Below the pieces are notes generated by a model. That model saw only the letters and a program-made list of their open reading frames with translations. It was not told the origin of the DNA and made no database searches. Position numbers and translations under genes: made by a program. 64,000 nucleotides of DNA from Candidatus Latescibacterota bacterium (GTDB lineage Bacteria > Latescibacterota > UBA2968 > UBA8231): positions 3,520,001 to 3,584,000 of the forward strand of contig OZ252098.1 of NCBI GenBank assembly GCA_965248355.1, in the 5' to 3' direction. How positions within the stretch are numbered: the first letter of the stretch is position 1; every line of letters begins with the position of its first letter. Of this stretch, positions 4,807 to 39,755 are shown one piece after another.

Positions 4807-7800
4807 TCAGTCCGCCTTCGCCACGTCCTCGATCGCCCGCTCCAGCCGCGCCGCCGAGACGCGTTCGGCCGTGCCCAGCTCCTGGGCGAAGACGGAGACC
4901 CGGAACTCCTCCACCAGCCAGCGCAGCGCCTCGGCCCGCCGGCGCCGCTCCGGCGAGGCCCCGTCCAGGCCTTCGCGGACCTTCTTCCAGGCCTGGCCGA
5001 AGGGAGCCACCTGGGCCGCCTTGGCCCCGTCCCGGCCGGCGTCGGCCTGAAAGCGGTCGGCGCGCACCCTCACGGCCTTGAGATAGCGCACCAGGTGCGG
5101 CAGGCGGTCGAACTCGAGTCCCGCCAGGAAATCCGCCGGCAGCAGGCGCTCGAGATCCTCCTTCAGCCCCGGGTAGGGACGCGGGTGGGCGATCAGCCCG
5201 GACCTCAGGTCCAGGATCTCCCGCATCAGGTCGAGGAAGCGCTGCGACAACCCCTCCAGCCGCTCCCGGGAGCGGGCCACGCGGGCCTCGAAGCGCTCCC
5301 GGGTCAGGGGGAAGACGCCGCCTTCCTGGAACAGGTAGCGGGCCAGGTGCTCGTAGGCCTGCAGCCGTCCGCCGGCCAGGGCCCGCAGATCCATCAACTC
5401 CCGCCGCAGCCAGACCGTCTCGTCCTTCAGGGCCAGCTCGCAGAGCCGCTGGAAGCCCGCCGGAGTGGCGGCGCGCGCCTCCTCGCGGTCGGGGAAGAGG
5501 CGCACGTGGACGGCGTTCTGCTCGAGCACCAGACCCGGGAAGGCGAACACGGGCACGCCGGAGACCCGGGTCACCTCAAGACGCTCGGGGAGGTCCACGA
5601 AGTCGAAGTCGACCACGTCCTCCCGCTCCCAGCGGCCGGCGGCCTCCCGCCAGGCGTCGAGCTGCACGGCGCCGGCCCCCGCCGGCCGGTCGAGCTGTCC
5701 GGACAGGGCCGCCAGGTCCCGGCCCGCGGCCAGGGTGGCGCGGCCGTCGCCCTCGACCTCCACGCGCAGGCGCAGGTGCTCGGGCACGGCTGCCAGATTC
5801 CAGTCGGCGCGGCGCACCTGCAGGCGCCAGTGCTCCTCGATGTAGTGCTCCAGGGCGCTGAGGAAGGCGCCGTCTCCGTGGGCGGGCTTCAGGTCGGCGG
5901 CGATCCGGCGGGCCGTGGACGGCACCGGCACGAAGCGCTTGCGCAGGGCCTTGGGCAGGGAGCGCAGCAGGGCGGTGACGCGCTCCTCGAGCAGCCCGGG
6001 GACCAGCCAGTCGAGGACCTCCGGCCGCACCGCGTCCACCAGGCGGTAGGGCAGGTGCAAGGTGATGCCGTCGGCCTCGGTTCCCGGCTCGTGCCGGTAG
6101 GAGAGGGCCAACTGCTCCCCCACCACGTCGACGGCCTCGGGAAACGCCTCCGTGTCGACGGGAGTGCCGGTGGCGCCGAGCAGTTGCTCTTCGCCGGCGA
6201 ACAGGAAGTCGTCGCGGCCTCCGCGCTCCCGGATCACCCGGTTCAGATCGTGGACCGAGGCCGTGCCCTCCGGCAGCAGCCCGGCGTAGAAGTCGTGCAG
6301 GGCGTCGTCGAGGTCGACCTGGGGGCCCTGGCGCCGGCGGCTCTGCCAGACCTCGAGCCGCTGGTGCAGGCGGCGGTTGTGATCGAGGAAGCCGTGGGCG
6401 ACACTGTCGATCTCCCCGGCGATCAGGCCTTCCCGCAAGAAGATGTCCCGCGCCTCCCGCGGGGCGATCCGGCCGTAGCCGACGCGTCGCTCGGCGACCA
6501 CGAGACCGTGGAGACGGACGGTCTCGTGCGCGAGGACGCGGCCGTCGGAGCGGCTCCAGTGGGGGTCCCGGCAGCTGGACCGGCACAGGTGCTCCCCCAG
6601 ATCCAGGATCCACTCGGGCCGGATGGCGGCGCAGGTGCGCGCGTAGAGCCGGTTCGTCTCCACCATCTCCGCGGCCACCACCCACTCCGCCCCCACAGCG
6701 GCGGCCTCCGCACCCGGCCCCTCCGCCGCCGGCGTCTCCACCCGGCGCTGCCTCGACTCGGAGCGCTGGAACAGCCCCGAGCCGGGAAAGAGCATCGCCC
6801 GCCGCCCGCGGGGCGCCGCATAGAGGTTGCGGTCCTCCCGGCGGGCCACGTGGCTGAAGAGCCCGGTGAGCAGGCAGCGGTGCACGGCCTCGTACGCCGC
6901 CTCGCCTCCGGGGCCGTCCTCGTCGAGCGGGAAGCCGCCCAGCTCCCGCAGGTTGGCGCGCACCTGCGCGTGGATGTCCCGCCATTCGCGCATGCGCAGG
7001 TAGGAGAGGTAGTGCTGCCTGCAGAACCTGCGCAGCTGCGACTGCGTGCCCTGCTCCAGCCGCTCGTGGCAGGCGCGCCAGATGTTGAGCAGGGTGAGGA
7101 AGTCGGAGCGCGGATCGACGAACCGCCGGTGAGCGAGATCGGCCTTCTCCTCCTCCTCGGCCGGGCGCTCGCGCGGATCCTGGACCGAGATGCCGGCGGC
7201 GATGACCAGCACCTCCGCCAGGCTGCCCTCGGCGCGGGCCTGCAGGACCATGCGCGACACCGCCGGCGAGATCGGAATGCGGGCCATGTCCCGCCCCAGG
7301 GGGGTGAGGCGGCGGTCCCGGTCGATGGCGCCGAGCTCCTCCAGCAGCTGGTAGCCGCCGCGGATCGCGGCCTCGGAGGGCGGCTCGAGGAAGGGGAAGC
7401 TCTCGACCGTTCCGAGCTCCAGGTCGAGCATGCGCAGGATCACCTCGGCGAGGTTGGCGCGCTGAATCTCCGGCTGGGTGTGCTCGGGCCGCGCCTGGAA
7501 GTCCTCCTCGCCGTAGAGACGGACGCAGATCCCGTCCTCGACGCGGCCGCAGCGCCCCTTGCGCTGCTCGGCCGAGGAACGGCTGATCTCCTCGATGGGC
7601 AGCCGCTGGGTCTGGGTGCGCGGGTTGTAGCGCGAGATGCGGGCCAGCCCGGTGTCGACGACGTAGCGGATGCCGGGGATGGTGAGGGAGGTCTCGGCGA
7701 TATTGGTGGCGATGACGATGCGCCGGCCCGTGTGGGCGCCGAAGACGCGGTGCTGCTCGGCGGCGCTCAGGCGCGAGAACAGGGGCAGGATCTCGACGCC

Positions 7801-8802
7801 GCCCGGCCCCTGGCGCCGCGCCTCCAGCCTTGACGACAAGAGGTCGCGGGTCTCGCGGATGTCGCGCTCCGCCGGCATGAAGACGAGCACGTCGCCGCGG
7901 GTGGACTCGGCCATCAGCCTTTCGCAGGCGGACACGGCCCCGTCGGTGTACGAAAACCCGCCTTCCTCCCCCTCCAGCAGCTCCTCCAGCGGCCAGTGCC
8001 GGACCTCGACCGGGTAGACGCGGCCCGACACCTGGATGACGGGGGCGCCGTCGAAGGCCCGGGAGAAGCTCTCGGTGTCGATGGTGGCCGAGGTGACGAT
8101 GATCCGGAGATCGGGACGGCGGGCCCTCAGCGTGCGCAGGTAGCCGAGGAGGAAGTCGATGTTCAGGGAGCGCTCGTGGGCCTCGTCGATGATCAGGGTG
8201 TCGTACTCGAGCAGATCGCGGTCGGAGCGGACCTCGGCCAGCAGCAGGCCGTCGGTGACGAACTTCACCAGCGTCTCCGGCGAGGTGCGGTCCTGGAAGC
8301 GGATCCTGGCGCCCACCTGCCGCCCCCACTCGACGCCGAGCTCCTCGGCCAGCCGCCGCGACAGGGAGGTGGCGGCGACCCGCCGGGGCTGGGTGACGGC
8401 GATGCGGGCGTCGCGCCCGCGGCCGGCGAGCAGGCAGATCTTGGGGATCTGGGTCGTCTTGCCCGAGCCGGTGTCCCCGGCGACGACGACGACGGGATGC
8501 TCCCGGACGGCGGCCTGGATCTCGTCCGCGCGCCGGCTGATCGGCAGCGGCTCCGGGAAGTCGATGGTCATCGACTCCAGGGCCCGCAGGCGCAGGGCGC
8601 GGGTCCTCCGCGAGCGCTCCGCGCGCTCGGCGATGTGGTCGAGATCGCGGACCAGGCGCCGGGGCGGCCGGCCGCGGGACAGGGCTTCCCGCAGACGCCG
8701 GAGACGGCGGCCCAGGCGCACGCGGTCGGACATCATGCAGCCCTCGAGGCTGTTCTCGAGATCGGCCAGTCTCTCGTCGGGTGGGGGGGCGGCGGAGCTC
8801 AT
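4807..8802 (-). CDS. hrpA: ATP-dependent RNA helicase HrpA
   Basis: GDTGSGKTTQIPK, TQPRR, DEAHERSLNIDF, SAT, QRKGRCGR; C-terminal EEFRVSVFAQELGT. Confidence 0.97.
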   Translation of the reverse strand: MSSAAPPPDERLADLENSLEGCMMSDRVRLGRRLRRLREALSRGRPPRRLVRDLDHIAERAERSRRTRALRLRALESMTIDFPEPLPISRRADEIQAAVREHPVVVVAGDTGSGKTTQIPKICLLAGRGRDARIAVTQPRRVAATSLSRRLAEELGVEWGRQVGARIRFQDRTSPETLVKFVTDGLLLAEVRSDRDLLEYDTLIIDEAHERSLNIDFLLGYLRTLRARRPDLRIIVTSATIDTESFSRAFDGAPVIQVSGRVYPVEVRHWPLEELLEGEEGGFSYTDGAVSACERLMAESTRGDVLVFMPAERDIRETRDLLSSRLEARRQGPGGVEILPLFSRLSAAEQHRVFGAHTGRRIVIATNIAETSLTIPGIRYVVDTGLARISRYNPRTQTQRLPIEEISRSSAEQRKGRCGRVEDGICVRLYGEEDFQARPEHTQPEIQRANLAEVILRMLDLELGTVESFPFLEPPSEAAIRGGYQLLEELGAIDRDRRLTPLGRDMARIPISPAVSRMVLQARAEGSLAEVLVIAAGISVQDPRERPAEEEEKADLAHRRFVDPRSDFLTLLNIWRACHERLEQGTQSQLRRFCRQHYLSYLRMREWRDIHAQVRANLRELGGFPLDEDGPGGEAAYEAVHRCLLTGLFSHVARREDRNLYAAPRGRRAMLFPGSGLFQRSESRQRRVETPAAEGPGAEAAAVGAEWVVAAEMVETNRLYARTCAAIRPEWILDLGEHLCRSSCRDPHWSRSDGRVLAHETVRLHGLVVAERRVGYGRIAPREARDIFLREGLIAGEIDSVAHGFLDHNRRLHQRLEVWQSRRRQGPQVDLDDALHDFYAGLLPEGTASVHDLNRVIRERGGRDDFLFAGEEQLLGATGTPVDTEAFPEAVDVVGEQLALSYRHEPGTEADGITLHLPYRLVDAVRPEVLDWLVPGLLEERVTALLRSLPKALRKRFVPVPSTARRIAADLKPAHGDGAFLSALEHYIEEHWRLQVRRADWNLAAVPEHLRLRVEVEGDGRATLAAGRDLAALSGQLDRPAGAGAVQLDAWREAAGRWEREDVVDFDFVDLPERLEVTRVSGVPVFAFPGLVLEQNAVHVRLFPDREEARAATPAGFQRLCELALKDETVWLRRELMDLRALAGGRLQAYEHLARYLFQEGGVFPLTRERFEARVARSRERLEGLSQRFLDLMREILDLRSGLIAHPRPYPGLKEDLERLLPADFLAGLEFDRLPHLVRYLKAVRVRADRFQADAGRDGAKAAQVAPFGQAWKKVREGLDGASPERRRRAEALRWLVEEFRVSVFAQELGTAERVSAARLERAIEDVAKAD

Positions 8803-8867
8803 GCGACTGGAAGGTAGGGGCCGGCGATGTACCTGTGAATGGCGATGCCTTCGTACCTTAGCGGGAC

Positions 8868-10109
8868 ATGCATGAGTTCATCGATACCCTGACGGGATGG
8901 CTCGCCGGGCACCCGCTGGGGAGACAGGTGGTGTACACCGCCGGGCTCTTCCTGGTGGCGTGGGGCGCCCATCTGCTGGCTCGCAAGGTCCTCCTGCGCT
9001 CCGTGACCCACCTGATCCGGGCCAGCAGCACGAAGATCGACGACGTGCTCCTGGACCGGGGGGTGCTGAACCGCGCCGCCCTGCTGCTCCCAGTGCTCGT
9101 CTTCTACTACGGCGCCGGCGTCCTGCCCGGCTCGAGGGAGACGGTCCTGCAGGTGGTCAACGCCGCCCTGCTCATGGTGGTGCTGCTCGTGGCGGGAGCC
9201 CTGATCGACGCCCTGCAGGAGGCGATGGCCGACTACGACGCGCGCACCGAGGTGCCGATCAAGAGCTACGCCCAGATCCTCAAGATCGCCCTCTACGTCA
9301 TCGGCGGCCTGATGACGGTGGCGGTCCTGACGGGGCGGTCCCCGTGGGTGCTGCTCTCAGGCGTCGGCGCCCTGATGGCCGTGATCATCCTCGTCTTCCG
9401 CGACACCCTCCTGTCGCTCGTGGCCAGCTTCACCATCGCCTCCAACCGGCTGGTCAAGGTGGGCGACTGGATCGAGGTCCCCACCTTCGGAGCCGACGGC
9501 GACGTCATCGACATGGCCCTGCACACGGTGAAGGTGCAGAACTGGGACAAGACGATCACCACGATCCCGACCCACAAGCTGGTGGACGTCTCCTTCAAGA
9601 ACTGGCGCGGCATGCAGGACAGCGGCGGGCGCCGGATCAAGCGCGCCATCCACATCGACATGCACTCGATCCGGTTCTGCGATCCGGAGATGCTGCAGCG
9701 ATTCGAACGCTTCGAGCTGATCCGCGGCTACCTGAGCGCCCGCCGGAAGGAGGTGGAGCAGTTCAACGCCGAATCGCGGATGGACGCTTCGGAGCTGGTC
9801 AATGGCCGGCACCTGACCAACGTGGGCACCTTCCGGGCCTACGTGGCCGCCTATCTGCGCAGCCACCCGCGCATCCGCCAGGACATGACCTTCCTGATTC
9901 GGCAGTTGGCGCCGACCGGGCAGGGGCTGCCCCTGGAGATCTACGTGTTCACCAACACCACGGTGTGGGCCGAGTACGAGGACATCCAGTCCGACGTCTT
10001 CGACCACCTGCTGGCGGTGGTGCCCCGCTTCGGGCTGCGCGTCTTTCAGGAGCCGGCGGGGTCGGATTTCGCGGCCCTTGCACACATCGACGCCGCGGGC
10101 ATAAGGTAG
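8868..10109 (+). CDS. Small-conductance mechanosensitive channel (YbdG/MscM type)
   Basis: N-terminal TM helices; GDWIEVP..GADGDVIDMALHTVKVQNWDKTITTIP; NWRGMQDSGGRRIKR. Confidence 0.92.
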   Translation: MHEFIDTLTGWLAGHPLGRQVVYTAGLFLVAWGAHLLARKVLLRSVTHLIRASSTKIDDVLLDRGVLNRAALLLPVLVFYYGAGVLPGSRETVLQVVNAALLMVVLLVAGALIDALQEAMADYDARTEVPIKSYAQILKIALYVIGGLMTVAVLTGRSPWVLLSGVGALMAVIILVFRDTLLSLVASFTIASNRLVKVGDWIEVPTFGADGDVIDMALHTVKVQNWDKTITTIPTHKLVDVSFKNWRGMQDSGGRRIKRAIHIDMHSIRFCDPEMLQRFERFELIRGYLSARRKEVEQFNAESRMDASELVNGRHLTNVGTFRAYVAAYLRSHPRIRQDMTFLIRQLAPTGQGLPLEIYVFTNTTVWAEYEDIQSDVFDHLLAVVPRFGLRVFQEPAGSDFAALAHIDAAGIR

Positions 10110-10163: not shown

Positions 10164-10736
10164 ATGAGAAGGAGCCGCCACAAGACCTTCGAGGTGTACG
10201 CCGTCCCAGGGCGGCTGTTGGCCCTGGCCATCCTCGGTCTGGGGCTCCTCCTCCCGGCGGAGGCGCCCGCGGCGTCGAAGGCCCAGTTCACCCTGCCGGC
10301 CATCGACGGCGAGCAGTTCTCCCTGCGGGAAGCGCTGAAGGAGGGGCCGGTGGTCCTCGACTTCTGGGCCACGTGGTGCAAGCCCTGCATCAAGGGGCTG
10401 CCCAAGCTGCAGGAGATCGCCCAGGAGTACGGCGAGCGCGGAGTGGGGGTGTACACCGTGAACGTCGACGGACCCCGCAATCAGCCCAAGGTGAGGCCCT
10501 TCCTGAAGCGCCACCGGCTGGAGCTGCCGGTCCTGCTCGACCACTCGAGGCAGGTGATGAAGCAGTTCCAGATACCCGCGGTTCCGGCGACCATGATCAT
10601 CTCCACCGAGGGCGAGGTGGTGTACAAGCACTTCGGGTACAAGCCGGGAGACGAGATCCGCCTGCGCGCCAGGCTGAAGGAGTTGCTGCAAGAGGCTGAA
10701 ACCGACTCCACGAAAGGGGGAGCCGATGAGGGTTAG
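10164..10736 (+). CDS. TlpA/ResA-like periplasmic thiol-disulfide oxidoreductase
   Basis: Signal peptide, LDFWATWCKPC active site, cis-Pro AVP loop, HFGYKPGDE. Confidence 0.93.
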   Translation: MRRSRHKTFEVYAVPGRLLALAILGLGLLLPAEAPAASKAQFTLPAIDGEQFSLREALKEGPVVLDFWATWCKPCIKGLPKLQEIAQEYGERGVGVYTVNVDGPRNQPKVRPFLKRHRLELPVLLDHSRQVMKQFQIPAVPATMIISTEGEVVYKHFGYKPGDEIRLRARLKELLQEAETDSTKGGADEG

Positions 10737-11616
10737 AGGTATTCTCCGGAAGGGGCGGGTCGCCTGCGCGGCCATCGCCCTCACCGCTTCACACATGGGC
10801 GGAGCGAGCGAGGCCGAGGCCCAGGCGACGGCCGGCGACCCGGCCCCCGCCTTCGAGCTCGAGACCGTGGACGGACAGCTCGTGTCGCTTGGTGACTTTC
10901 TCGGCGAGAAGGTCGTCTACATCAACTTCATCGGGAACACCTGACCGTTCTGCATCGCGGAGGCCGCGAGTTCCGAGGCAATATGGCAGAACTACGGGAG
11001 CGATGGCTTCACCGCCCTCGGCATCGATCTGTGGGACGCGAGGGCCTCCAACGTCAAGTCCATCTGGGTCGACGACGGCCTGGCGTCCTACCCGATGCTG
11101 GTCAACGGCTCGGGGGTGGCCCGGGACTACGGCGTGGTCCAGGACTACTACTTCGTCATCGATCACGAGGGGATCGTCCGTTACCGGTCGCCCGACGCAA
11201 GGCTTGGGAACCGCTTCAATGACGGGGAGATCCGCGATGCCATCGACGATGCCCTGGCCGATCTCGCCGCCGCCCTGGAGGTCGTCGAAGTGGAGGAGGA
11301 GCCGGAGGTGATCACGGCGGTTTCGTCCGCCCCCCAGGTGCCCGACGGGTTCGAGCTGGGCGCCTATCCGAATCCCTTCAACGCGGAAACGACCCTCTCC
11401 TTCACGGTGAGCACGGCGGGCCCGCTGGTCCTGACCCTGTCCGATCTCCAGGGGCGCATCCTGCGCGACTGGTCCGGACACTACGGGACCGGGAGCCACT
11501 CCCTGACCTGGGACGGACGCGGCGAGAGCGGTGAACCCGTCGCCTCCGGGGTCTACGTCGCCACCGCGCGCCAGGGGGCCGCGGCCATCACCCGAAAGGT
11601 CACCCTGCTGAAGTAG
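10726..11616 (+). CDS. Putative selenoprotein: exported thioredoxin-fold redoxin (UPFC, Sec73) fused to a FlgD-Ig/T9SS type A-like C-terminal domain, 296 aa
   Basis: ORFs 10726-10944 and 11095-11616 are in the same frame. Reading through TGA (10942-10944) gives KVVYINFIGNT-U-PFCIAEAASSEAIWQNYGSDGFTALGIDLWD...YPMLVNG..VARDYGV..YYFVIDHEGIVRY with no other stop. Tail YPNPFN...WDGRGESGEPVASGVY...RKVTLLK. Confidence 0.85.
10955..10969 (+). promoter_or_regulatory. Candidate bacterial SECIS hairpin
   Basis: TCGCGG-AGG-CCGCGA perfect 6-bp stem starting 10 nt after the UGA; G-containing apical loop. Confidence 0.6.
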
Positions 11617-11634
11617 GGAGGAGCGGTCCCGCTC

Positions 11635-13185
11635 CTACAGCACCTTGCTGATCAGGCGCAACTCGAGGCCCTCGAAGCCCAACACCTCGTAGCAGCTGCC
11701 CCCGGTGCAGGCCAGCCCCGTCCTCCGCCGGCCCGCAAAGGCGTCCAGCGTGTGGGCCTCGCGGAACCTCCAGCTGGCGCCGAGAGCCCCCCAGTACGTC
11801 GCCCCCGACTCCGAGGCCCCGGCCTCCAGGGGGTCGTTGGACCTCTGCAGCTGCAGCGACCACGTCCACGCCGGATAGCGGCTGACCTCCACGATGGCCA
11901 GCAGGTTCTCGTGGGGGAACTCACTCCGGCCGAAGCGCCGGTCCACGTCCTGCAACTGCAGGTCGGCGCTGACGGCGTGGCGCCCGCCGGCGGACCACTC
12001 CCAGCGCGTGCCGGCGGTCAGGCGCCGCTCGTTCTCGAGGATGCGGTTGCGCGTATAGTCGAGGAACAGCTGTCCGTGGAGGACCTCGCCCACCGGGGAA
12101 TCCAATTGCAGGAAGTACTCCCGCAGCGACTTCTCCTCGCCGGGGCGCGAACCCCGGCGGGTGGCCAGGTTCCAGGCGGCGATCAGCCCGACCTGGCGGG
12201 GCAGGGCCCAGGTGAGCTCGGCCTGGACCCCGGTCTCGTCGTCGGCCAGCAGGGCGTGGGTCTCCCGGTTGAGCAGGAAGGCCTCGTGCTCCCGGATCAG
12301 GGTGGGCGGGTTGTTGATGCTCGCAAAGGCGAAGTCGTGGTAGTCCTTCCGTTCCAGGCTCAGCCCCCAGTCCCCGCCCGTCAGGGTGGCGGCCAGGTAG
12401 AGGGCCCGCGGGCGCTTGCTGTCCAGGGAGAACCAGCGGCCCGGGGCGGGATCGAGCTGGGCGTACTCGCCGTAGAGATCGCCGTACCAGCCACCCAGTC
12501 CGAGCCCTTCCAGGAGCGACCCGAAACGGAACTCCCCATGGGTGGTGGCGGCCAGCTCCTCGCGCCCGTCGAAGGAGAACTCCATCAGCGCCGCCCCGAT
12601 CTCGATGTCGCGGCTCAGGCGGGCGCCGACGGCCCCGCCGGAAACGCGGCCCCGGCGCCGTTCCAGACCCTTCAGCCCGGGGGCCAGCTCGCTGTTCACG
12701 GGGGTGCCGCGCAGCCACAGCACGTCCACCTTCCCCCGCCGGGCGCGCACCTCCACGCCATCAAGGTCGCGCACGATCTGGTAGCGGCGGCGGGCGACGC
12801 GGTCCTCGGTGACGACGCCCGGAAGCTCGAAGGCGTGCAGGAGGAGTCCGCGGCCCACCAGGGTGTAGAAGTGTCCGGCCGTCGCCTCGAGGCCGCCGTG
12901 CCGGTAGGAGAGGGATCGCTGCGCGAGGTGAGCGTAGTCCCGGCCGTCTCCGCTGGAGCGGAAGGCCTCGCTTCGGGCGCTGGCCAGGAATCCCGAGGAC
13001 TCGAAACCGAGGTTCACCTGCTGGTACACGGCCCGCAGATCGGCCGGCTCCGCGTCGGGAAGGTTGCCGAGCTGGTATTCGTGGTGGGCCGTGAGCCGCA
13101 CCTGGCCGTGGAGGGGGCCGGCCGCCAGCAGGGCGGCCGCCAACAGGGCGAGGAGCCCAGGGCTGGCGCGACAAGGAAGGGTCAT
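11635..13185 (-). CDS. DUF6029-like outer-membrane beta-barrel protein with C-terminal CxxxxC
   Basis: Signal peptide; GHFYTLVGRGLLL; INNPPTLIREH; alternating beta-strand pattern; C-terminal GRRRTGLACTGGSCYEVLGFEGLEL. Confidence 0.75.
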   Translation of the reverse strand: MTLPCRASPGLLALLAAALLAAGPLHGQVRLTAHHEYQLGNLPDAEPADLRAVYQQVNLGFESSGFLASARSEAFRSSGDGRDYAHLAQRSLSYRHGGLEATAGHFYTLVGRGLLLHAFELPGVVTEDRVARRRYQIVRDLDGVEVRARRGKVDVLWLRGTPVNSELAPGLKGLERRRGRVSGGAVGARLSRDIEIGAALMEFSFDGREELAATTHGEFRFGSLLEGLGLGGWYGDLYGEYAQLDPAPGRWFSLDSKRPRALYLAATLTGGDWGLSLERKDYHDFAFASINNPPTLIREHEAFLLNRETHALLADDETGVQAELTWALPRQVGLIAAWNLATRRGSRPGEEKSLREYFLQLDSPVGEVLHGQLFLDYTRNRILENERRLTAGTRWEWSAGGRHAVSADLQLQDVDRRFGRSEFPHENLLAIVEVSRYPAWTWSLQLQRSNDPLEAGASESGATYWGALGASWRFREAHTLDAFAGRRRTGLACTGGSCYEVLGFEGLELRLISKVL

Positions 13186-13267
13186 CGATCTCTCATCCGC
13201 GGACTCCGTCCCTCCCAGGGTACGCCTGCCAGCCGCCCGGACTCAAATCGCCCACCCCGGGTTCTCC

Positions 13268-14974
13268 TCAGGTCCGCGTCCCTTCCATGAGAATCCGCGC
13301 CACCTCCGGCCTGGTGAACTCCATGGGCGGGACCTGTCCCTTGGCCAGCATGTCGCGCACCTGTGTGCCGCTCAGATTCACGCGTTCCTCCGCGCCGTGC
13401 GGGCAGGTCTTCATGGAGGCCATGCCCTCGCAGCGCTTGCAGAAGAAGGAATGATCGAAGAACAGCGGGGTGATGCCCAGGTCGGCCGGGGGCAGGCTCC
13501 GCAGCAGGTCCTGCGCCTCATAGGTTCCGTAGTAGGACCCGACACCGGCGTGATCCCGTCCGACGATGAAGTGCGTGCAGCCGTAGTTCTTGCGGACGAG
13601 GGCGTGGAACACGGCCTCGCGCGGTCCCGCGTAGCGCATCGCCGCAGGCAGGACCGACAGATGCACACGGTCGGACGGGTAGTAGCCCTCCAGGAGGGCC
13701 CCATAGCAGCGCATCCGGATGTCGGCGGGGATGTCGTCCGGCTTGGTCTCTCCCACAAGGGGGTGCAACAGCAGCCCGTCGACGATCTCCAGGGCCGCCT
13801 TCTGGATGTACTCATGGGCGCGGTGGACGGGATTGCGGGTCTGAAACCCGACGATCGTCCGCCAGCCTCGCTCGGCGAAAGCGGCGCGCGTCTCGGCCGG
13901 GTCCTGCCGGTGGGACAGCAGAGCCGCCTCGAGGTCCTCGCGCTCGATGGCGGTGACCGCTCCGCCGATCAGCGCGTCATGCTGCCGGTAGACGGAGGCC
14001 ACGCCGGGGTGCGCTTCCTCCTGGGTGCCGAAGACGCTCTGCGCCTCGACCCTCTTGTCGTACGGATAGACCTCGTCAACCGTGATGACGCCGACGAGGC
14101 GGCCGGCGGGGTCGTGCAGGGCGGCTTCGTCGCCCCTTTCGAGTCCCGAGGCCGCTTCCCAGGGCGCGGACAAGGTGATCGGCAGGCTCCACAAGGTGCC
14201 GTTCGCGAGCCGCATCTCGCGCACCGTGCGCTCATAGTCGCCCCGGCTCATGAAGCCGGCCAGCGGGCTCATCGCCCCGACGGCGATGAGGTCGAGGTCA
14301 GCGGACTCGCGGGGAGAAAGCCCGAGGCGGGGCAGGGCCGAGGCCCGGGCGCGAATCTCCTGCGCCTCCTCCGGCGAGGCCAGTCGGTGGATGAGAGCGC
14401 CCCCGTGGGGCGCGATGGCCGTCATGGTGGCCGTGCCCTGTGGCGCGAATCCCCTCTCCTTCAGCGCGGACAGGACCTTGCCGAGGCTCTCCTCGATGGT
14501 CTCCTCCTCCGTGTTGACCAGGACCTCAGGGCTTGGCGGCGCCTCATACGGGTCCGAGACACCGGTGAAATTGGGAATCTCGCCCTTGAGCGCCTTCTCA
14601 TACAGGCCCTTCACGTCGCGCCGCACCAGCTCATCGAGCGAGGCGTGGACATGAACCTCGATGAAGCGGCCGATCTCCCGCCGCACCTCGTCGCGCACTT
14701 CGCGGTACGGCGAGATGGCCGAGACGATGCTGACCACGCCGTTGCGCGTGAGGAGGTTGCTGACGAATCCGATGCGCCGGATGTTGGTGTCGCGATCCTC
14801 CTTGCTGAAGCCGAGTCCCTTGCTGAGGTTCGTGCGGACCACGTCGCCGTCGAGCAGCTCGCAGTTGATACCCCGCTCCCCGAGGACCGCGAGCAACCGC
14901 TCCGCGATAGTGCTCTTGCCCGCGCCCGAAAGGCCGGTAAACCAGACCGTCACTCCCTGCGGATCTGTCGTCAC
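13268..14974 (-). CDS. cysC-sat: Bifunctional adenylyl-sulfate kinase (N-terminal CysC) / sulfate adenylyltransferase (C-terminal Sat)
   Basis: [32 protein letters not shown] (CysC); [36 protein letters not shown] (Sat). Confidence 0.95.
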
Positions 14975-15004
14975 CTTGTTTCCTCCCTTGTCCGGGTTCG
15001 TGTT

Positions 15005-15772
15005 CTATGGTGTGGCGATGCCGGCGCCGTTTCCGGGCGGGATCGCAGTCCTCGAGATGTGGATGCCGCACTCCACCTTGTCCCCGAAATCGGACCAGCG
15101 GCCGGCTCTGCGGTCCTCGCCGGGCCGGACGGCGCGGGTGCAGTGGGTGCAGCCGATGCTGGGATACCCGCGGTCGTGCAGGTCGTTGTAGGGCACGTCG
15201 TTCTCGCGAATGCAATCCCAGATGTCCTCCTCCGTCCAAGTCGCCAGGGGGTTGATCTTGACGAGGTTGAACTTGATGTCCCATGCGACGATGGCGACAT
15301 CCTTGCGCCTGGTGCCCTGATCACGGCGCAAGCCGGCCATCCAGGCGTGCTGCCCGGCGAGGGCCTCCTCGCTGGGCCCGACCTTGCGGATCTCGCAGCA
15401 GAGATCGGGGTCGACCTTCCAGAGTTCCGGGCCGTGCCGTGCCGCCTGTCGCTCGACGGAAACGTCCGCCTTGAAGGCCATGGGACGGATTCCGTAGCGG
15501 CGCGCGGCCCGGTCCTTGAGGGCGTGTGTCTCCGGGAAGAGAAAGCCCGTATCGACGTAGAAGACGGAGACGGCGGGATTGATCTCCATGGCCATGTCGA
15601 GCAGGACCATGCCGGAGACACCGCCAAAGCTGCAGGCGAGCGTGATGTCCGGGAAGAAGGTCTCCAGGGCCCAGCGCACGATCTCCCGCGGGTGGGCGTC
15701 CTCCAGCTCGGCTCTGACCTGTCCAAGCCTCTCCTCGGTCCATTCCGTCCTCAGCGCTCCAATGTCCGCCAT
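15005..15772 (-). CDS. cysH: Adenylyl-sulfate (APS) reductase, CysH family, [4Fe-4S] type
   Basis: DTGFLFPET, LCCEIRKV, GYPSIGCTHCT, RAGRW, ECGIH. The CC + CxxC pattern indicates the Fe-S APS-reductase type. RBS GGAGGG upstream of ATG 15772. Confidence 0.92.
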   Translation of the reverse strand: MADIGALRTEWTEERLGQVRAELEDAHPREIVRWALETFFPDITLACSFGGVSGMVLLDMAMEINPAVSVFYVDTGFLFPETHALKDRAARRYGIRPMAFKADVSVERQAARHGPELWKVDPDLCCEIRKVGPSEEALAGQHAWMAGLRRDQGTRRKDVAIVAWDIKFNLVKINPLATWTEEDIWDCIRENDVPYNDLHDRGYPSIGCTHCTRAVRPGEDRRAGRWSDFGDKVECGIHISRTAIPPGNGAGIATP

Positions 15773-15803
15773 GTCTTCCGCTCTCCCTCCGTATCTGGCT
15801 GGC

Positions 15804-15843
15804 AAGAAAAAACCCGCCCCCCTTGGCTGTCGGGGGGCGGGTT
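15804..15843 (-). terminator. Intrinsic terminator (attenuator) upstream of cysH
   Basis: Minus strand AACCCGCCCCCC-gacagccaa-GGGGGGCGGGTT-TTTTCTT: 12-bp stem plus U tract, ending about 30 nt before the cysH ATG. Confidence 0.85.
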
Positions 15844-15900
15844 CGTGCGCTTCTTCCTGGTTGATCAGGCGTGCCGCGCCGCTGTGTCAGTGAGGCCGGC

Positions 15901-16020
15901 TTACGTCGCTCGTCCGGCCTCCCGCCCCTGGATGGGCGTACAACAACACGAGCAGGTCACCGCGGCGCGGGGCGCCAGGGCAATCGCTGAGCAGTCAGGT
16001 ATGTGGAATTGCGCGTTCAT
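15901..16020 (-). CDS. Cysteine-rich leader peptide, 39 aa: MNAQFHIPDCSAIALAPRAAVTCSCCCTPIQGREAGRAT
   Basis: ATG to TAA ORF with TGC-TCG-TGT-TGT-TGT run, lying between a sigma70-like promoter and a terminator ahead of the cys genes. Confidence 0.8.
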   Translation of the reverse strand: MNAQFHIPDCSAIALAPRAAVTCSCCCTPIQGREAGRAT

Positions 16021-16043
16021 CGTCTCACGATCCGCTTCAACGC

Positions 16044-16071
16044 AAAATAGGCGACCGGCCTATGCTGTCAA
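16044..16071 (-). promoter_or_regulatory. Sigma70-like promoter of the cys leader, with overlapping inverted repeat
   Basis: TTGACA-16 nt-TATTTT on minus strand; ATAGGC-N5-GCCTAT at 16047-16063. Confidence 0.65.
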
Positions 16072-16252
16072 TGCGTCGACGCTGGCCGCGCCCTCACCGC
16101 CCAGCTCGCTGCCGAAGAGGGCCTGCCTTGAGCAACCGCCTGCTGCGCCAGGCGCGCCGAATCCTCCTGCCAGGTGCCCTCGCTCCAACGACGGCCAGCC
16201 TGCACTGGTGCGCGCCCCCTGAATCCCTCCGGCAAGGCAGCATGACCCTGTC

Positions 16253-17383
16253 ATGTTTGCCCTGATCTTCCTGGCCCTGCTGGGCTCCGTCCATGCCTAT
16301 TCGGGCTGGCGGCTCATCCCCCATCTTCCTCCCCCGGCTCACTTCGGTGCCGCATCGGTGTTGGTGCTCCTCCTGTTGCTGCCCCTGTTGCTCTTCCGCC
16401 TGCGGTCCCGTCCACATCTGGCCTGGCTCACGGATCCCCTTGCCTGGGTGGCCTATCTGGGCATGGGTCTCTTCACCGTCTGCTCGACTCTGCTGGTCCT
16501 GCGCGACGTGGGAGCCCTGCTCTGGGGCCTGGTCCATCCTGTCGGCGCGGGGCTCGACGCCCGCCTCGACCTGGTCACCTTTGTCCTGGCCCTGGTGGTA
16601 ACGGGCTATGGCTGTTACCAGGCCCGACGCACGCCGGTGGTCCGCCGGGTCGAGATCCCTATTGCGGATCTCCCGCCCGCATTGGTGGGGCTGCGCATCG
16701 TGCAGATCAGCGATCTCCACGTGGGCCCCACCATCAAGGCCCCTTTTGTGGAGCGCGTTGTCACCCGCGTCAACGAACTGCGGCCCGACCTGATCGCCTT
16801 CACCGGCGATCTCGCCGACGGCGCCGTCGAACGACTCGCCCCTCATACGGCCCCCCTGGCCCAACTCACCGCTCCCCTCGGGATCTATTTCTGTACCGGC
16901 AACCACGAATACTACTCGGGCGTGGAGAGCTGGACCGAACAGGCCCGCCGACTCGGATTCGATGTCCTGATCAACGAAGCACGCCACATCGACTGCGGGG
17001 ACGGGCGCATCGCCTTGGCCGGCGCCACCGACTTCAGCGCCGGCGAGCTGGTCCCCGGCCACGCTTCCGATCCGGCCAAGGCCCTTGCCGGGAGCGACGG
17101 CGCCCACGTGCGAATCCTGCTCGCCCACCAGCCGCGCAGCATAGAGGCGGCCGCCACCGCCGGTTGCCACCTGCAACTGTCGGGGCACACCCACGGCGGC
17201 CAGTTCGTGCCGTGGAAGTACACCATCCTTCTGCAACAGCCCTATATCGCGGGACTGCACAAGGTTCGCGGCACCTGGATCTACGTCCACCGGGGCACCG
17301 GCTACTGGGGGCCCCCGCTGCGGCTCGGCGCCCCTTCCGAAATCGCGCTCCTCACCCTGAGCCGGGCGCCGCCGACCGGTTAA
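16253..17383 (+). CDS. Membrane-anchored metallophosphoesterase (YkuE-like)
   Basis: N-terminal TM helices; SDLHVG, TGDLAD, GNHEYY, LAHQP, SGHTHGGQ. Confidence 0.92.
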   Translation: MFALIFLALLGSVHAYSGWRLIPHLPPPAHFGAASVLVLLLLLPLLLFRLRSRPHLAWLTDPLAWVAYLGMGLFTVCSTLLVLRDVGALLWGLVHPVGAGLDARLDLVTFVLALVVTGYGCYQARRTPVVRRVEIPIADLPPALVGLRIVQISDLHVGPTIKAPFVERVVTRVNELRPDLIAFTGDLADGAVERLAPHTAPLAQLTAPLGIYFCTGNHEYYSGVESWTEQARRLGFDVLINEARHIDCGDGRIALAGATDFSAGELVPGHASDPAKALAGSDGAHVRILLAHQPRSIEAAATAGCHLQLSGHTHGGQFVPWKYTILLQQPYIAGLHKVRGTWIYVHRGTGYWGPPLRLGAPSEIALLTLSRAPPTG

Positions 17384-37878: not shown

Positions 37879-38796
37879 TCAGGACCCCCTCCTGACCAGG
37901 CTCACCCGGTGGGCCTCCCCGAGTCCGTCCCCGAAGGGCAGGAAGGCGTAGTCCAGCCGCCAGAGGCGGGCCGACAGGCCCACCCCGAAGGCCAGGTTCC
38001 CCGTGCCGGCGGTGCCGTATCCGGTGCGCACCACCAGGCGCGGCGACAGGCTCCACTCGGCTCCCAGGTGCAGACTCGCGTCGGCGTCGCGGCTGGTCCC
38101 GATGTCGGCGGCGGCGGTCAGGGGCCCCCGCGCCAGGGCCGCGCCAACGCGGGCCTGCAGAGGCAGCTCCGTCGCCTCCCGGTCCAGCTCGTTCATCCGG
38201 CCCAGATTGCGCAACGCCGCCCCGAACGACCACGGACCCCTCCCGTACAGCAGACCCAGATCGACGGCCAGGCCCGAGGCGGCCTCGACGTCGATGGACT
38301 GGCGCACGAGCTTGCCGCCGATGCCCAGCCGCAGGCGCTCGCCCCACGGCCGGGACCAGGCGGCCCCCGCCGTCCACTCGTAGAGGCCGAACTCTCCGAG
38401 AGGCTCCCGGGTCGGGCCCAGGCGCCGCTCCAGGCCCCCTGCATGGGCCATGCGCACGTCGAGGGCCAGCACGTCGCCCGCGGCTCTCGGCCACAAGGCC
38501 GCGGCCTGCTCGTGGCGCATGCCTCCGATCCACTCGGTGTGGCTCAGCACCGCCGACCGCACCGGCGCCAGGGCCGCGGGGTTGAGGCTGGCCGCCGCCG
38601 GATCGGAGAGGGCCGTCGCCGCTCCCCCGAGAGCCGCGGCCCGGGCCCCGGCGCCCTGGCGGAGGAATCCCAGGCCGCTGTCGGCGTCGATGCCCCCGGG
38701 CAGCCAGCAGGCGCAGGCCGCGATCAGGACCGCCCGGCCGCCCCGGGCCGGAAGGGGCTCCGGCCTGGGAAGACGTCTCGCCGGCGAAGGCTTCAA
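37879..38796 (-). CDS. PorV/PorQ-like outer-membrane protein
   Basis: FLRQGAGARAAALGGA.TA...NPAALA; DYAFLPFGDGLGEAHRVSL; TTG start overlaps upstream TGA. Confidence 0.8.
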   Translation of the reverse strand: MKPSPARRLPRPEPLPARGGRAVLIAACACWLPGGIDADSGLGFLRQGAGARAAALGGAATALSDPAAASLNPAALAPVRSAVLSHTEWIGGMRHEQAAALWPRAAGDVLALDVRMAHAGGLERRLGPTREPLGEFGLYEWTAGAAWSRPWGERLRLGIGGKLVRQSIDVEAASGLAVDLGLLYGRGPWSFGAALRNLGRMNELDREATELPLQARVGAALARGPLTAAADIGTSRDADASLHLGAEWSLSPRLVVRTGYGTAGTGNLAFGVGLSARLWRLDYAFLPFGDGLGEAHRVSLVRRGS

Positions 38797-39755
38797 GGCA
38801 GTTGACCCACGAGGGTGAGCACGGTCCGGGCGCCGGCGCCGATCTCGTCCGCCACGTACGCGTAGTGGACCTGGAAGGCCTCGATGCGCATGGGCCGGAC
38901 GGTGGCGCCGAAGGCGGGCCGCCCCAGGCCGCCGCCCTCGCCGGCGCGGTGCAGTCCGCCGCGCAGGGTGAGCAGATCGCTCACCCGCCATTCGAGACCG
39001 AGGTGGCCGCGCAACTCCCGGCCTCCCGCCGGATCGAGGATCTCGGCATCCACGGCGGCCGTCGACCCGGGGCGGAAGGTGTGCGACACCCCGACGAGGA
39101 GAGCCGATCGCAGGGCCTCCTCGGAGACGCTGGTCTGATCGGAGGGTTGCTTCACCGTCCAGGAGAGCTTGTCCAGCAGGTTTCTCGCGGTCGCGCCCAG
39201 GGCCGTCCGGGAGGACAGCCGCCAGCGAAGGCCGAGGTCGACGCCGCGGCCGCTGGCGGTCGAGGTACCGCTCCCCGGCACCTCGATGCGATGTCTGAGG
39301 ATCTTCAGGCTCGCACCGAGCTGCAGCGGCGCGAGGGGGCGCAGTCCGAGGCCGAAGATCACCGCGTCTTCGGCGTTGTCCAGGTCCCCGGCGATGACCT
39401 CCCCGGAACCGCTGCGCGCCTGCAGCCCGCCGACCCCGGCGTGCAGCCACGCCAGGCCGAAGGCCAGGCCGCCGCGCGGATTCATGGCGGCCGCAAGTCC
39501 GGACCGGGTGCGATCCAGGGACATGGGCTGGTACGAGGCCAGCATCCCCTTGCCGGTCGAGGTGGCCAGTCCCGCGGGGTTGTAGAGCACGGCCGCGGGC
39601 CCCTCGGCGGCCGCCGCCTGGGCGCCGCCCAAGCCGAGGGCGCGGGCCCCGAGGCCGGTGTCGAGGAAGGCGCCCCCGAGGCGCCCGGCGCCGGCCGGGG
39701 CCGCCGCCAGGCACAGGATCAGAACCCCGAGAGGAAAGCGGGAGCCGCGCGGCAT
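38793..39755 (-). CDS. PorV/PorQ-like outer-membrane protein
   Basis: GAFLDTGLGARALGLGGA...VLYNPAGLA; C-terminal HYAYVADEIG..TVLTL. Confidence 0.8.
   Translation of the reverse strand: MPRGSRFPLGVLILCLAAAPAGAGRLGGAFLDTGLGARALGLGGAQAAAAEGPAAVLYNPAGLATSTGKGMLASYQPMSLDRTRSGLAAAMNPRGGLAFGLAWLHAGVGGLQARSGSGEVIAGDLDNAEDAVIFGLGLRPLAPLQLGASLKILRHRIEVPGSGTSTASGRGVDLGLRWRLSSRTALGATARNLLDKLSWTVKQPSDQTSVSEEALRSALLVGVSHTFRPGSTAAVDAEILDPAGGRELRGHLGLEWRVSDLLTLRGGLHRAGEGGGLGRPAFGATVRPMRIEAFQVHYAYVADEIGAGARTVLTLVGQLP

Follow-up and report, generated by a model that had tools for sequence, protein, structure and literature searches.

The window, a stretch of 64,000 nucleotides, carries three adjacent genes whose products each contain a redox-type pair, as the initial annotation had proposed: WCKPC in a TlpA-like protein, UPFC in a redoxin read with selenocysteine, and C493-x4-C498 in a DUF6029 barrel protein (Table 1). 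The start of the redoxin gene overlaps the TlpA gene by 11 nt, and the barrel gene is convergent with the redoxin gene across a gap of 18 nt. With the barrel gene pointing at the other two, the three do not form a single operon in this strain. An Rfam scan of the window returned a tRNA as its only match.

Table 1. Genes and sequence features at the locus (positions in the window)
Feature	Position	Strand	Description
TlpA-like gene	10164-10736	+	190 aa, WCKPC; TlpA/ResA-type thioredoxin-fold reductase
Selenocysteine redoxin gene	10726-11616	+	296-aa single frame if TGA is read as Sec; AhpC/TSA-like fold
TGA read as selenocysteine	10942..10944	+	In-frame; Sec/Cys alternation; selA, selB and tRNA-Sec in genome
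SECIS-like hairpin	10955..10969	+	6-bp stem, 3-nt loop, G at position 2, 16 nt after TGA
DUF6029 barrel gene	11635-13185	-	516 aa, outer-membrane beta-barrel, 24 strands predicted
C493-x4-C498 site	11692..11709	-	Predicted beta-hairpin 490-494/497-501, between last two barrel strands
cysH and fused cysC-sat	13268..15805	-	Adjacent in this strain, outside the conserved module
cysH	15005-15805	-	Same strand as barrel gene

The TlpA-like protein exceeded the Pfam cut-offs for AhpC-TSA (85.7 bits) and Redoxin (76 bits) and scored below the cut-offs of the named NCBIfam equivalogs. As a TlpA/ResA-type protein should, it combines a Redoxin fold and a WCxxC motif with a hydrophobic, signal-like N-terminal stretch and a proline (the cis-Pro loop) that is invariant in the family alignment; it has no lipobox or export tail, and is predicted to be periplasmic. 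The redoxin domain matched AhpC-TSA (59.9 bits) and bears the motif NTUPFC, in which U73 and C76 form the UxxC pair. This protein also begins with a signal-like stretch. The barrel protein, previously described only as DUF6029-like, is a full member of PF19494 (57.6 bits against a gathering cut-off of 27), and its top Atlas matches were DUF6029 (0.98). Apart from C5 in the signal-peptide region, its only cysteines are C493 and C498, the CTGGSC pair singled out at the start.

In 32 of 40 loci from the host phylum, an in-frame TGA occupies the first cysteine position of the CxxC motif of the redoxin, and 77 loci of the Bacteroidota group have Cys (73) or Sec (4) at the same position. The genome encodes selA and selB, both over cut-off, and tRNA-Sec. 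The hairpin behind the TGA agrees with the rule, given in passages of PMC13188914, that a SECIS element lies 16-37 nt downstream with a G at the start of its loop. Covariation in this hairpin amounted to 24 double-change cells, a value reached in 0/500 shuffles and above all slid controls, the closest being 22 at +2. Because most phylum loci share the TGA, homologs have Cys there and the Sec machinery is present, the codon is not a chance occurrence, and its reading as selenocysteine, already made in the initial annotation, is well supported by the sequence data. On the basis of PMC13188914, the use of Sec marks the redoxin as a likely site of redox catalysis.

We surveyed the gene neighborhoods of DUF6029 homologs. 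TlpA adjoined the barrel in all 40 phylum loci (38 genomes), through convergent, tandem and divergent layouts, and in 75 of the 80 Bacteroidota-group loci, all five misses being contig ends. A second redoxin lay near the barrel in 32/40 phylum loci (UxxC) and 77/80 Bacteroidota-group loci (mostly CxxC); no such redoxin was found nearby in the other 8 phylum loci. Cultured, non-pathogenic marine isolates carry the trio in its cysteine version, among them strains of Carboxylicivirga, Saccharicrinis, Labilibacter and Aliifodinibius. TlpA, barrel and redoxin are one conserved module across several phyla, and the statement in the initial annotation that DUF6029 genes often neighbor TlpA-like genes holds. 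Barrel-linked TlpAs, that of the host included, carry a DxPR motif (73/75 and 36/40, read by eye) that occurs in 0/8 other thioredoxin-like matches of this genome (also read by eye), and by this motif they are a distinct subfamily.

Across 76 genomes of the host's family, whose relatives and linked genes are not independent observations, barrel and redoxin occurred together in 52, neither in 23, the redoxin alone in 1, and the barrel alone in none. Before counting, weak matches in 5 genomes of family f1 (E above 1e-4, positions 137-218) were dropped as non-homologous. A PF19494 search of 5 barrel-negative genomes gave no match, but neither did the controls, so that this search does not show absence. 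Three family f3 genomes, as well as G013 and G055 (fragmented), have the redoxin but yielded no barrel. Additional, unlinked copies of the redoxin are present in many genomes, and the redoxin is therefore not tied to the barrel locus. Distance-matrix correlations among the three proteins (r 0.78-0.89) were set aside, being explained by shared ancestry.

TlpA and the barrel also occur as one polypeptide. Protein searches returned four TlpA-DUF6029 fusions, and in one clade 23 of 42 metagenome loci encode a single-frame fusion. Among the readable upstream T9SS proteins of this clade, about half lack a CxxC domain. In 20/42 loci an exported Ig-like domain is encoded that has an invariant C-x4-C pair of its own; an Omp28 domain accompanies it in some cases and is absent in others. 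Among the other loci, 0/40 and 0/80 had the Ig-like domain, and this genome gave no match for it. Its identity with nDsbD was not established: one of 23 members matched DsbD_N (PF11412; E 0.0015), and there was no significant PDB match. The exported partner is swappable for another thioredoxin fold. A CxxC protein of the Omp28 type that ends in a T9SS tail adjoins a distant barrel, and such proteins appear in part of the fusion clade. T9SS cohesin proteins replace the redoxin in two loci.

At its C-terminus the redoxin scored 29.5 for TIGR04183, the T9SS type A sorting domain (cut-off 23), and stayed below the cut-off of Pfam Por_Secre_tail (15.9 against 27). SprA and PorV are encoded in the genome, over cut-off, as expected if the redoxin is T9SS cargo, and the protein is predicted to be exported by this route; a T9SS tail is evidence of export, not of surface retention. 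In the phylum and Bacteroidota-group loci, the second redoxin is nearly always tagged: it bears a T9SS tail, a lipobox or an EF-hand-like tail. In relatives, the EF-hand/dockerin-like tails are a putative export signal only. Among the 77 Bacteroidota-group loci, the T9SS-tail form was present in 32, the lipobox form in 57 and neither in 4. Just past the lipid cysteine, 49/57 lipobox redoxins are net acidic, as is the Bacteroidetes surface-export signal in the part of PMC5080379 consulted. By contrast, none of 75 TlpAs from the Bacteroidota-group loci has a lipobox or tail.

In the structural model, the barrel is predicted to be a pore of about 24 strands with the cysteine pair on the facing strands of a hairpin, which by strand count would be an outer-side loop. 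Of 197 homologs complete at the C-terminus, 194 keep CxxxxC and 166 have no further cysteine after residue 35; in the homolog P0176 both cysteines are lost. Conservation peaks in the loops 107-137, 284-316 and 488-503, and invariant charged residues are numerous on strands and loops. A model of the natural fusion P0076 (pLDDT 89.7, pTM 0.75) again gave 24 strands and the hairpin; as four rows cover its TlpA domain and pTM is blind to docked versus free TlpA, it was not used as evidence. A sequence search of the PDB with the barrel profile gave 0 matches at E 10.

We then considered the sulfate-assimilation genes upstream of the barrel gene on the same strand. The 82-nt gap from the cysC-sat stop (13268) to the barrel gene was confirmed, and a promoter- or terminator-like site was not found in it. 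RNA contigs (two runs, one study) cover tlpA, the redoxin gene and parts of the barrel gene; one of them bridges the barrel-sat gap and another both convergent gene ends, and the contigs carry no strand information. Transcription may continue from sat into the barrel gene in this strain. However, sat or cysH stands beside the barrel in 0/40 phylum loci and 1/80 others (cysH only, on the opposite strand), and in 5/5 relatives checked these genes lie elsewhere, about 2 Mb off in two same-genus genomes with long contigs. The functional tie hinted at in the initial annotation is thus rejected; the sulfate genes are bystanders.

The remainder of that proposal, a relay of electrons from TlpA through the barrel dithiol to the exported redoxin, gains from the co-occurrence of the trio, the near-invariant barrel cysteines, the TlpA-barrel fusions and export tags confined to the redoxin. 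We tentatively favor the reading, at somewhat short of an even chance, that the DUF6029 barrel is an outer-membrane thiol/selenol conduit across the FCB group, with a hairpin swinging in a 24-strand pore between a dedicated, DsbD-fed TlpA and interchangeable surface folds (Sec/Cys AhpC/TSA-like and Omp28). A DsbD/CcdA membrane domain is encoded 2.2 Mb from the module, and such a protein would keep TlpA reduced. TlpA would then dock on the barrel at its periplasmic opening and exchange with C493/C498, a step that we consider probable. The hairpin, which would tuck into the pore alongside the other two conserved loops, could face either side. It would fill the role of nDsbD, in which a cysteine pair outside the thioredoxin fold mediates between two proteins that have that fold. 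Given that exchange, there is a slightly better than even chance that the exported redoxin accepts the electrons, which it would spend on surface disulfides or oxidants. Gene linkage points to an electron route from periplasm to cell surface.

Other arrangements of the same parts were weighed against this conduit. The barrel may be a redox-gated or thiol-assisted channel, its hairpin switched or maintained by TlpA. Its solute would be a small species (thiol, disulfide, selenium or metal) that the exported redoxin makes or consumes, and the two redoxins would exchange no electrons through the barrel. Such a channel would account for a near-absolute TlpA-barrel linkage, with fusions, alongside a looser third partner; the barrel shares with solute channels an abundance of invariant charged residues in its strands and loops, and its fold matches are channels and ushers. 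It is nevertheless unlikely, if still a credible contender: the surroundings of the barrel in 120 loci hold no conserved transporter, TonB or metabolic gene, and the commonest family beyond the barrel and the thioredoxin-fold cluster reached 14/120, and the mutual replacement of unrelated thioredoxin folds as exported partner is left unexplained. That the neighboring proteins are clients, with TlpA and the barrel reducing or reshuffling the disulfides of T9SS cargo and surface lipoproteins while these are exported or afterwards, would fit their near-universal export tags, the Ig-like domain of the fusion clade, the two cohesin loci and the roughly 100 T9SS-tail matches in the genome. We regard such quality control as decidedly unlikely, since the Ig-like domain was found in that clade only and near-complete relatives lack the entire module, which is therefore not core secretion machinery.

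Cysteines paired across strands in an outer loop may have a purely structural role. TlpA would then be a maturation or repair factor only, with the redoxin an independent surface enzyme clustering alongside, in keeping with the predicted placement of the pair on facing hairpin strands and with redoxin copies that are unlinked or lie in genomes where no barrel was found. But 23 reductase-barrel fusions, together with a third thioredoxin fold retained through inversions and across phyla, exceed the needs of one-off maturation, and we judge this improbable. Hardly any weight is left for DUF6029 as a polysaccharide export porin or a sulfate-assimilation component. The only paper found that names DUF6029 (PMC9603273) proposes polysaccharide export, from HHpred similarity to DUF6029 of Wzi-barrel-like matches near OPX genes, and our fold search returned Wzi (Z 14.6) and AlgE (Z 14.8). 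Those porins, however, are 18-stranded and would have OPX, Wzx or Wzy neighbors; about 24 strands were modeled here, and crude ORF clustering of the 120 loci, in which OPX was not searched by name, gave no conserved neighbor family but redoxins. A sulfate role draws on cysH and cysC-sat upstream in this strain and founders on the locus counts above.

To our knowledge, known routes across the outer membrane use heme wires. In porin-cytochrome conduits (MtrCAB; PDB 6r2q), a large barrel likewise sits between periplasmic and outer redox proteins, and MtrB appeared in the barrel fold search as a generic large-barrel match (Z 11.7, rmsd 5.8, 377 aligned, 8% identity). Unlike MtrCAB, the module would use thiol/selenol chemistry and is without heme motifs: no CxxCH was found in the three proteins, and no cytochrome family among the conserved neighbors of the 120 loci. 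The best fold matches were the fimbrial ushers FimD/PapC (Z 18.9, rmsd 4.8, 363 aligned, Foldseek TM about 0.5), whose likeness is one of barrel size only, in line with a 24-strand pore; identity was 10-12%, and our barrel has neither plug nor chaperone-binding domains and no pilin genes. The redoxin shares fold and motif with the Prx-like thiol:disulfide oxidoreductase selenoproteins (PF00578, UxxC; PMC13188914 Table 1), but bears a T9SS sorting tail. It lacks the cis-Pro typical of TlpA-type proteins, and its redox domain reached no NCBIfam cut-off. The passages found in that paper mention neither DUF6029 nor Omp28.

The literature searched gave no answer to how thiol/selenol enzymes outside Gram-negative cells are re-reduced, and the module is a concrete, testable candidate for this task. 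Should one of the rival readings hold instead, a barrel with a dedicated or fused reductase would still be undescribed in that literature. The closest relatives of the proposed conduit are the DsbD cascade and the CcdA/TlpA/ResA pathways, in which thioredoxin folds likewise exchange through a non-thioredoxin pair and with which it shares a TlpA/ResA-type member. In DsbD, electrons pass from tmDsbD to cDsbD, nDsbD and then CcmG/DsbC, the nDsbD pair being Cys103-Cys109 (PMC3137068, in the part consulted). Known cascades of this type use a helical domain to cross the inner membrane, and their last step is periplasmic. In the present case, a profile search found no DsbD domain in the three proteins, which places them outside the DsbD type itself; the pair is C-x4-C rather than C-x5-C and lies in an outer-membrane beta-barrel, the last partner is export-tagged, and the exchange is one that we infer. 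If the conduit exists, it would give a large unstudied barrel family a redox role, offer a rationale for the export of thioredoxin-fold proteins and selenoproteins by FCB bacteria, and extend the DsbD cascade to the cell surface.

The initial annotation placed three redox-pair genes side by side in the window and took one product for a DUF6029-type barrel; both assignments held (see the table). The host likely belongs to Candidatus Latescibacterota, the source recorded for one homolog at 46% identity. In the selenocysteine (Sec) redoxin, a signal-like N-terminus precedes an AhpC/TSA-like domain that carries UPFC, and the C-terminal T9SS type A sorting domain scores above the NCBIfam cut-off. 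The MscS gene on the far side of tlpA adjoins the module in two same-genus loci only, among 20 loci examined.

Coordinates of the module, its surroundings and related features
Feature	Position	Strand	Remarks
TlpA/ResA-type redoxin, 190 aa, WCKPC	10164-10736	+	gene call and profile match
Sec redoxin, single 296-aa frame if TGA at 10942 is Sec	10726-11616	+	11-nt overlap with tlpA
DUF6029 (PF19494) member, 516 aa, cysteines C5, C493, C498	11635-13185	-	
cysH and fused cysC-sat		-	upstream of barrel gene, same strand, gap 82 nt
cysC + sat, single 568-aa frame	13268-14974	-	APS kinase first
Variable site	13186-17380		barrel gene to peptidase-like gene at 17380
cysH leader, sigma70-like promoter (10/12)	16071-16044	-	overlapped by hairpin
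cysH leader, second hairpin	16063-15947	-	
HrpA-like helicase (-), MscS channel (+)	4807-10109	-/+	upstream of tlpA
Two tandem PorV-family barrels	37897-39671	-	
Second thioredoxin-fold gene	G000:C1:3214380-3213991	-	this genome; TGA at first position of xxC motif

The initial annotation gave DUF6029 genes as frequent neighbours of TlpA-like genes in FCB bacteria, and our survey bore this out. TlpA adjoined the barrel in all 40 phylum loci (9-17 kb, 38 genomes, chosen for long contigs and spread from about 100 barrel matches), in convergent, tandem and divergent layouts, and was found in 75 of 80 Bacteroidota, Balneolaceae and Rhodothermales loci (the best 80 among 289), the five misses being contig ends. 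A UxxC redoxin lay near the barrel in 32/40 phylum loci, and the same family in 77 of those best 80, with the upstream side cut in the three misses. No further neighbour family occurred in more than 14 of the 120 loci by crude clustering of 1202 ORFs. Protein searches yielded four TlpA-DUF6029 fusion proteins, and TlpA and barrel shared one reading frame at 23 of the 42 metagenome loci of that fusion clade; two of these loci are identical in sequence, and many of the others were cut or had separate genes. DxPR was common to barrel-linked TlpAs (73/75, 36/40 and 2/4 fusion proteins) and occurred in none of eight other thioredoxin-like matches of this genome, and a lipobox or export tail was found on 0/75 barrel-linked TlpAs. 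Judged by sequence, TlpA and the barrel are one unit. The trio is a real, conserved and unstudied module; no description of it was found in the literature searched, which comprised titles and abstract openings in a collection with few subscription papers.

An AlphaFold2 model of the barrel (35 sequences, pLDDT 84, pTM 0.79) has about 24 strands by manual count and places C493 and C498 on opposed strands of a small hairpin, which lies between the final two strands of the barrel. A natural TlpA-barrel fusion, when modelled, gave the same picture of strands and hairpin, and its pTM carries no information on TlpA-barrel contact. No solved structure related to the barrel was found by sequence search; its top fold matches were the ushers FimD (Z 18.9) and PapC (Z 18.1) at 10-12% identity, followed by many porins, and such matches to a predicted model tell barrel size, not function. 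Conservation of the cysteines, which had been set as a check, was nearly complete: two protein searches gave 222 homologs, of which 197 extend to the C-terminus; 194 of the 197 matched C-x4-C, the other three being one with the pair by eye, one apparently frameshifted, and one (P0176) lacking both cysteines. P0176 and the barrel gene of genome G021, broken by stops, are instances of barrel decay. Conservation was highest in three loops, 107-137, 284-316 and 488-503 (the hairpin), and among charged residues on neighbouring strands. Because both termini of such barrels are periplasmic, these three loops would lie on the outer side, and their conservation hints at a fold into the pore lumen.

The genome encodes Sec machinery (tRNA-Sec, selA and selB), and TGA stands at the identical site in 32/40 phylum loci (L070 among them). 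The hairpin 16 nt past the TGA has a 6-bp stem and a loop with G as its second base, which fits the SECIS consensus in the available passages of a 2026 selenoproteome review (PMC13188914), which catalogue Prx-like UxxC proteins and, as far as found, mention neither DUF6029 nor Omp28. In an alignment of 29 distinct sequences, 78% of the cells of the tested stem were paired and 24 were double changes, a count matched by 0/500 shuffles; slid-control stems gave 7-22 double-change cells versus 24, counts that kinship among sequences inflates. At the level of sequence, the TGA can safely be read as Sec. In Bacteroidota-group homologs the site is Cys in 73/77 loci and Sec in 4/77. The second thioredoxin-fold gene is likely a further selenoprotein.

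By its sequence signals, the exported partner is export-tagged and swappable. Redoxins of 77 Bacteroidota-group loci included 32 with the T9SS-tail form, 57 with the lipobox form and 4 with neither, three of the last being cut or misparsed by our rough classification rule. Most redoxin lipoproteins (49/57) have a net negative charge following the lipid cysteine, in agreement with the surface-export signal described in the accessible part of PMC5080379. In two other families of the phylum the tail is EF-hand/dockerin-like, with a putative export role; such a repeat replaces the T9SS tail in Sec redoxins of L042, L045, L051-L054, L057, L065, L066 and L070, some of which stand in tandem arrays together with Cys forms. 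Other variants were Bacteroidales lipoproteins with the redoxin domain twice in tandem (L075, L077, L086, L088, L107, L128, L138, L139, L142), and adjacent lipoprotein and T9SS copies in Balneolaceae. Two copies in genome G059 (L046, L047), whose Sec frame stops 65 residues past U, are cases of decay. Next to one distant barrel within the phylum, a T9SS-tailed Omp28-type protein with CxxC takes the place of the redoxin, a type also present in 8/26 fusion-clade loci with the upstream gene read.

In 20/42 fusion-clade loci an exported Ig-like domain was encoded that bears an invariant C-x4-C pair; the domain was not found in this genome. This unnamed domain (L151-L188, e.g. L163:3745-4422), single or doubled, has an invariant W-x4-C-x4-C whose cysteine spacing mirrors the barrel hairpin, and its hosts are T9SS proteins immediately upstream of the TlpA-barrel genes. 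It matched DsbD_N weakly (1/23 members, E 0.0015), and structurally similar domains occur in T9SS and Omp28 clusters.

The initial annotation also suggested that the barrel gene may share a transcript with the sulfate-assimilation genes upstream. We reject a link to these genes because sat and cysH were near the barrel in 0/40 phylum loci, and among the best 80 of 289 Bacteroidota-group loci a single one had cysH and none had sat; because sat lies away from the module in five genomes checked, four same-genus and one other (about 1.85 and 1.98 Mb away on the same contig in relatives G006 and G007); and because the region upstream of the barrel gene varies from genome to genome. RNA contigs of one study cover the genes and carry neither strand nor shared-transcript information. 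The variable site holds cys genes and a metallophosphoesterase here and unrelated genes in G006 and G007. cysC and sat are two adjacent genes in 4/4 same-genus genomes; the fusion looks real, because DNA contigs of two studies match across the junction without difference. No Rfam family matched the cysH-leader hairpins.

The genome encodes a DsbD/CcdA membrane domain, SprA and PorV; five PorV matches exceeded the cut-off, and about 100 T9SS-tail matches were present. By analogy, DsbD would reduce TlpA, which would dock at the periplasmic mouth of the barrel and reduce the hairpin, and the hairpin would recharge the exported Sec redoxin. Exchange between TlpA and the hairpin is probable, and the whole relay from DsbD is plausible and unproven, a reading we hold tentatively. 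Barrel and redoxin co-occur in 52/76 genomes of the host's family by our count, with neither in 23 and the redoxin alone in one. Counted against the relay are a redoxin present with no barrel match in three genomes of family f3 and two fragmented genomes, where a barrel-negative search is unable to show absence; extra unlinked redoxin copies in many genomes; no nearby redoxin in 8/40 loci, whose genomes have a match elsewhere (three weak); and about half of the fusion-clade upstream proteins lacking CxxC.

Among rival readings, a redox-gated solute channel is unlikely, and disulfide quality control for secreted proteins, to which the export-tagged partners could point, we rate somewhat lower. 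A structural disulfide, for which the opposed hairpin strands of the model might be read, is improbable. The one paper found to name DUF6029 (PMC9603273, seen in part) proposed a role in polysaccharide export because HHpred showed a resemblance to barrels of 18 strands; our model has more strands, and this role or one in sulfate assimilation is very improbable.

To our knowledge, the other routes by which electrons cross the outer membrane are heme conduits. The proposed relay would resemble the DsbD cascade, in which, according to the portion of PMC3137068 available, thioredoxin folds exchange via the non-thioredoxin pair Cys103-Cys109 of nDsbD; here the barrel hairpin would be the non-thioredoxin cysteine pair between thioredoxin folds.
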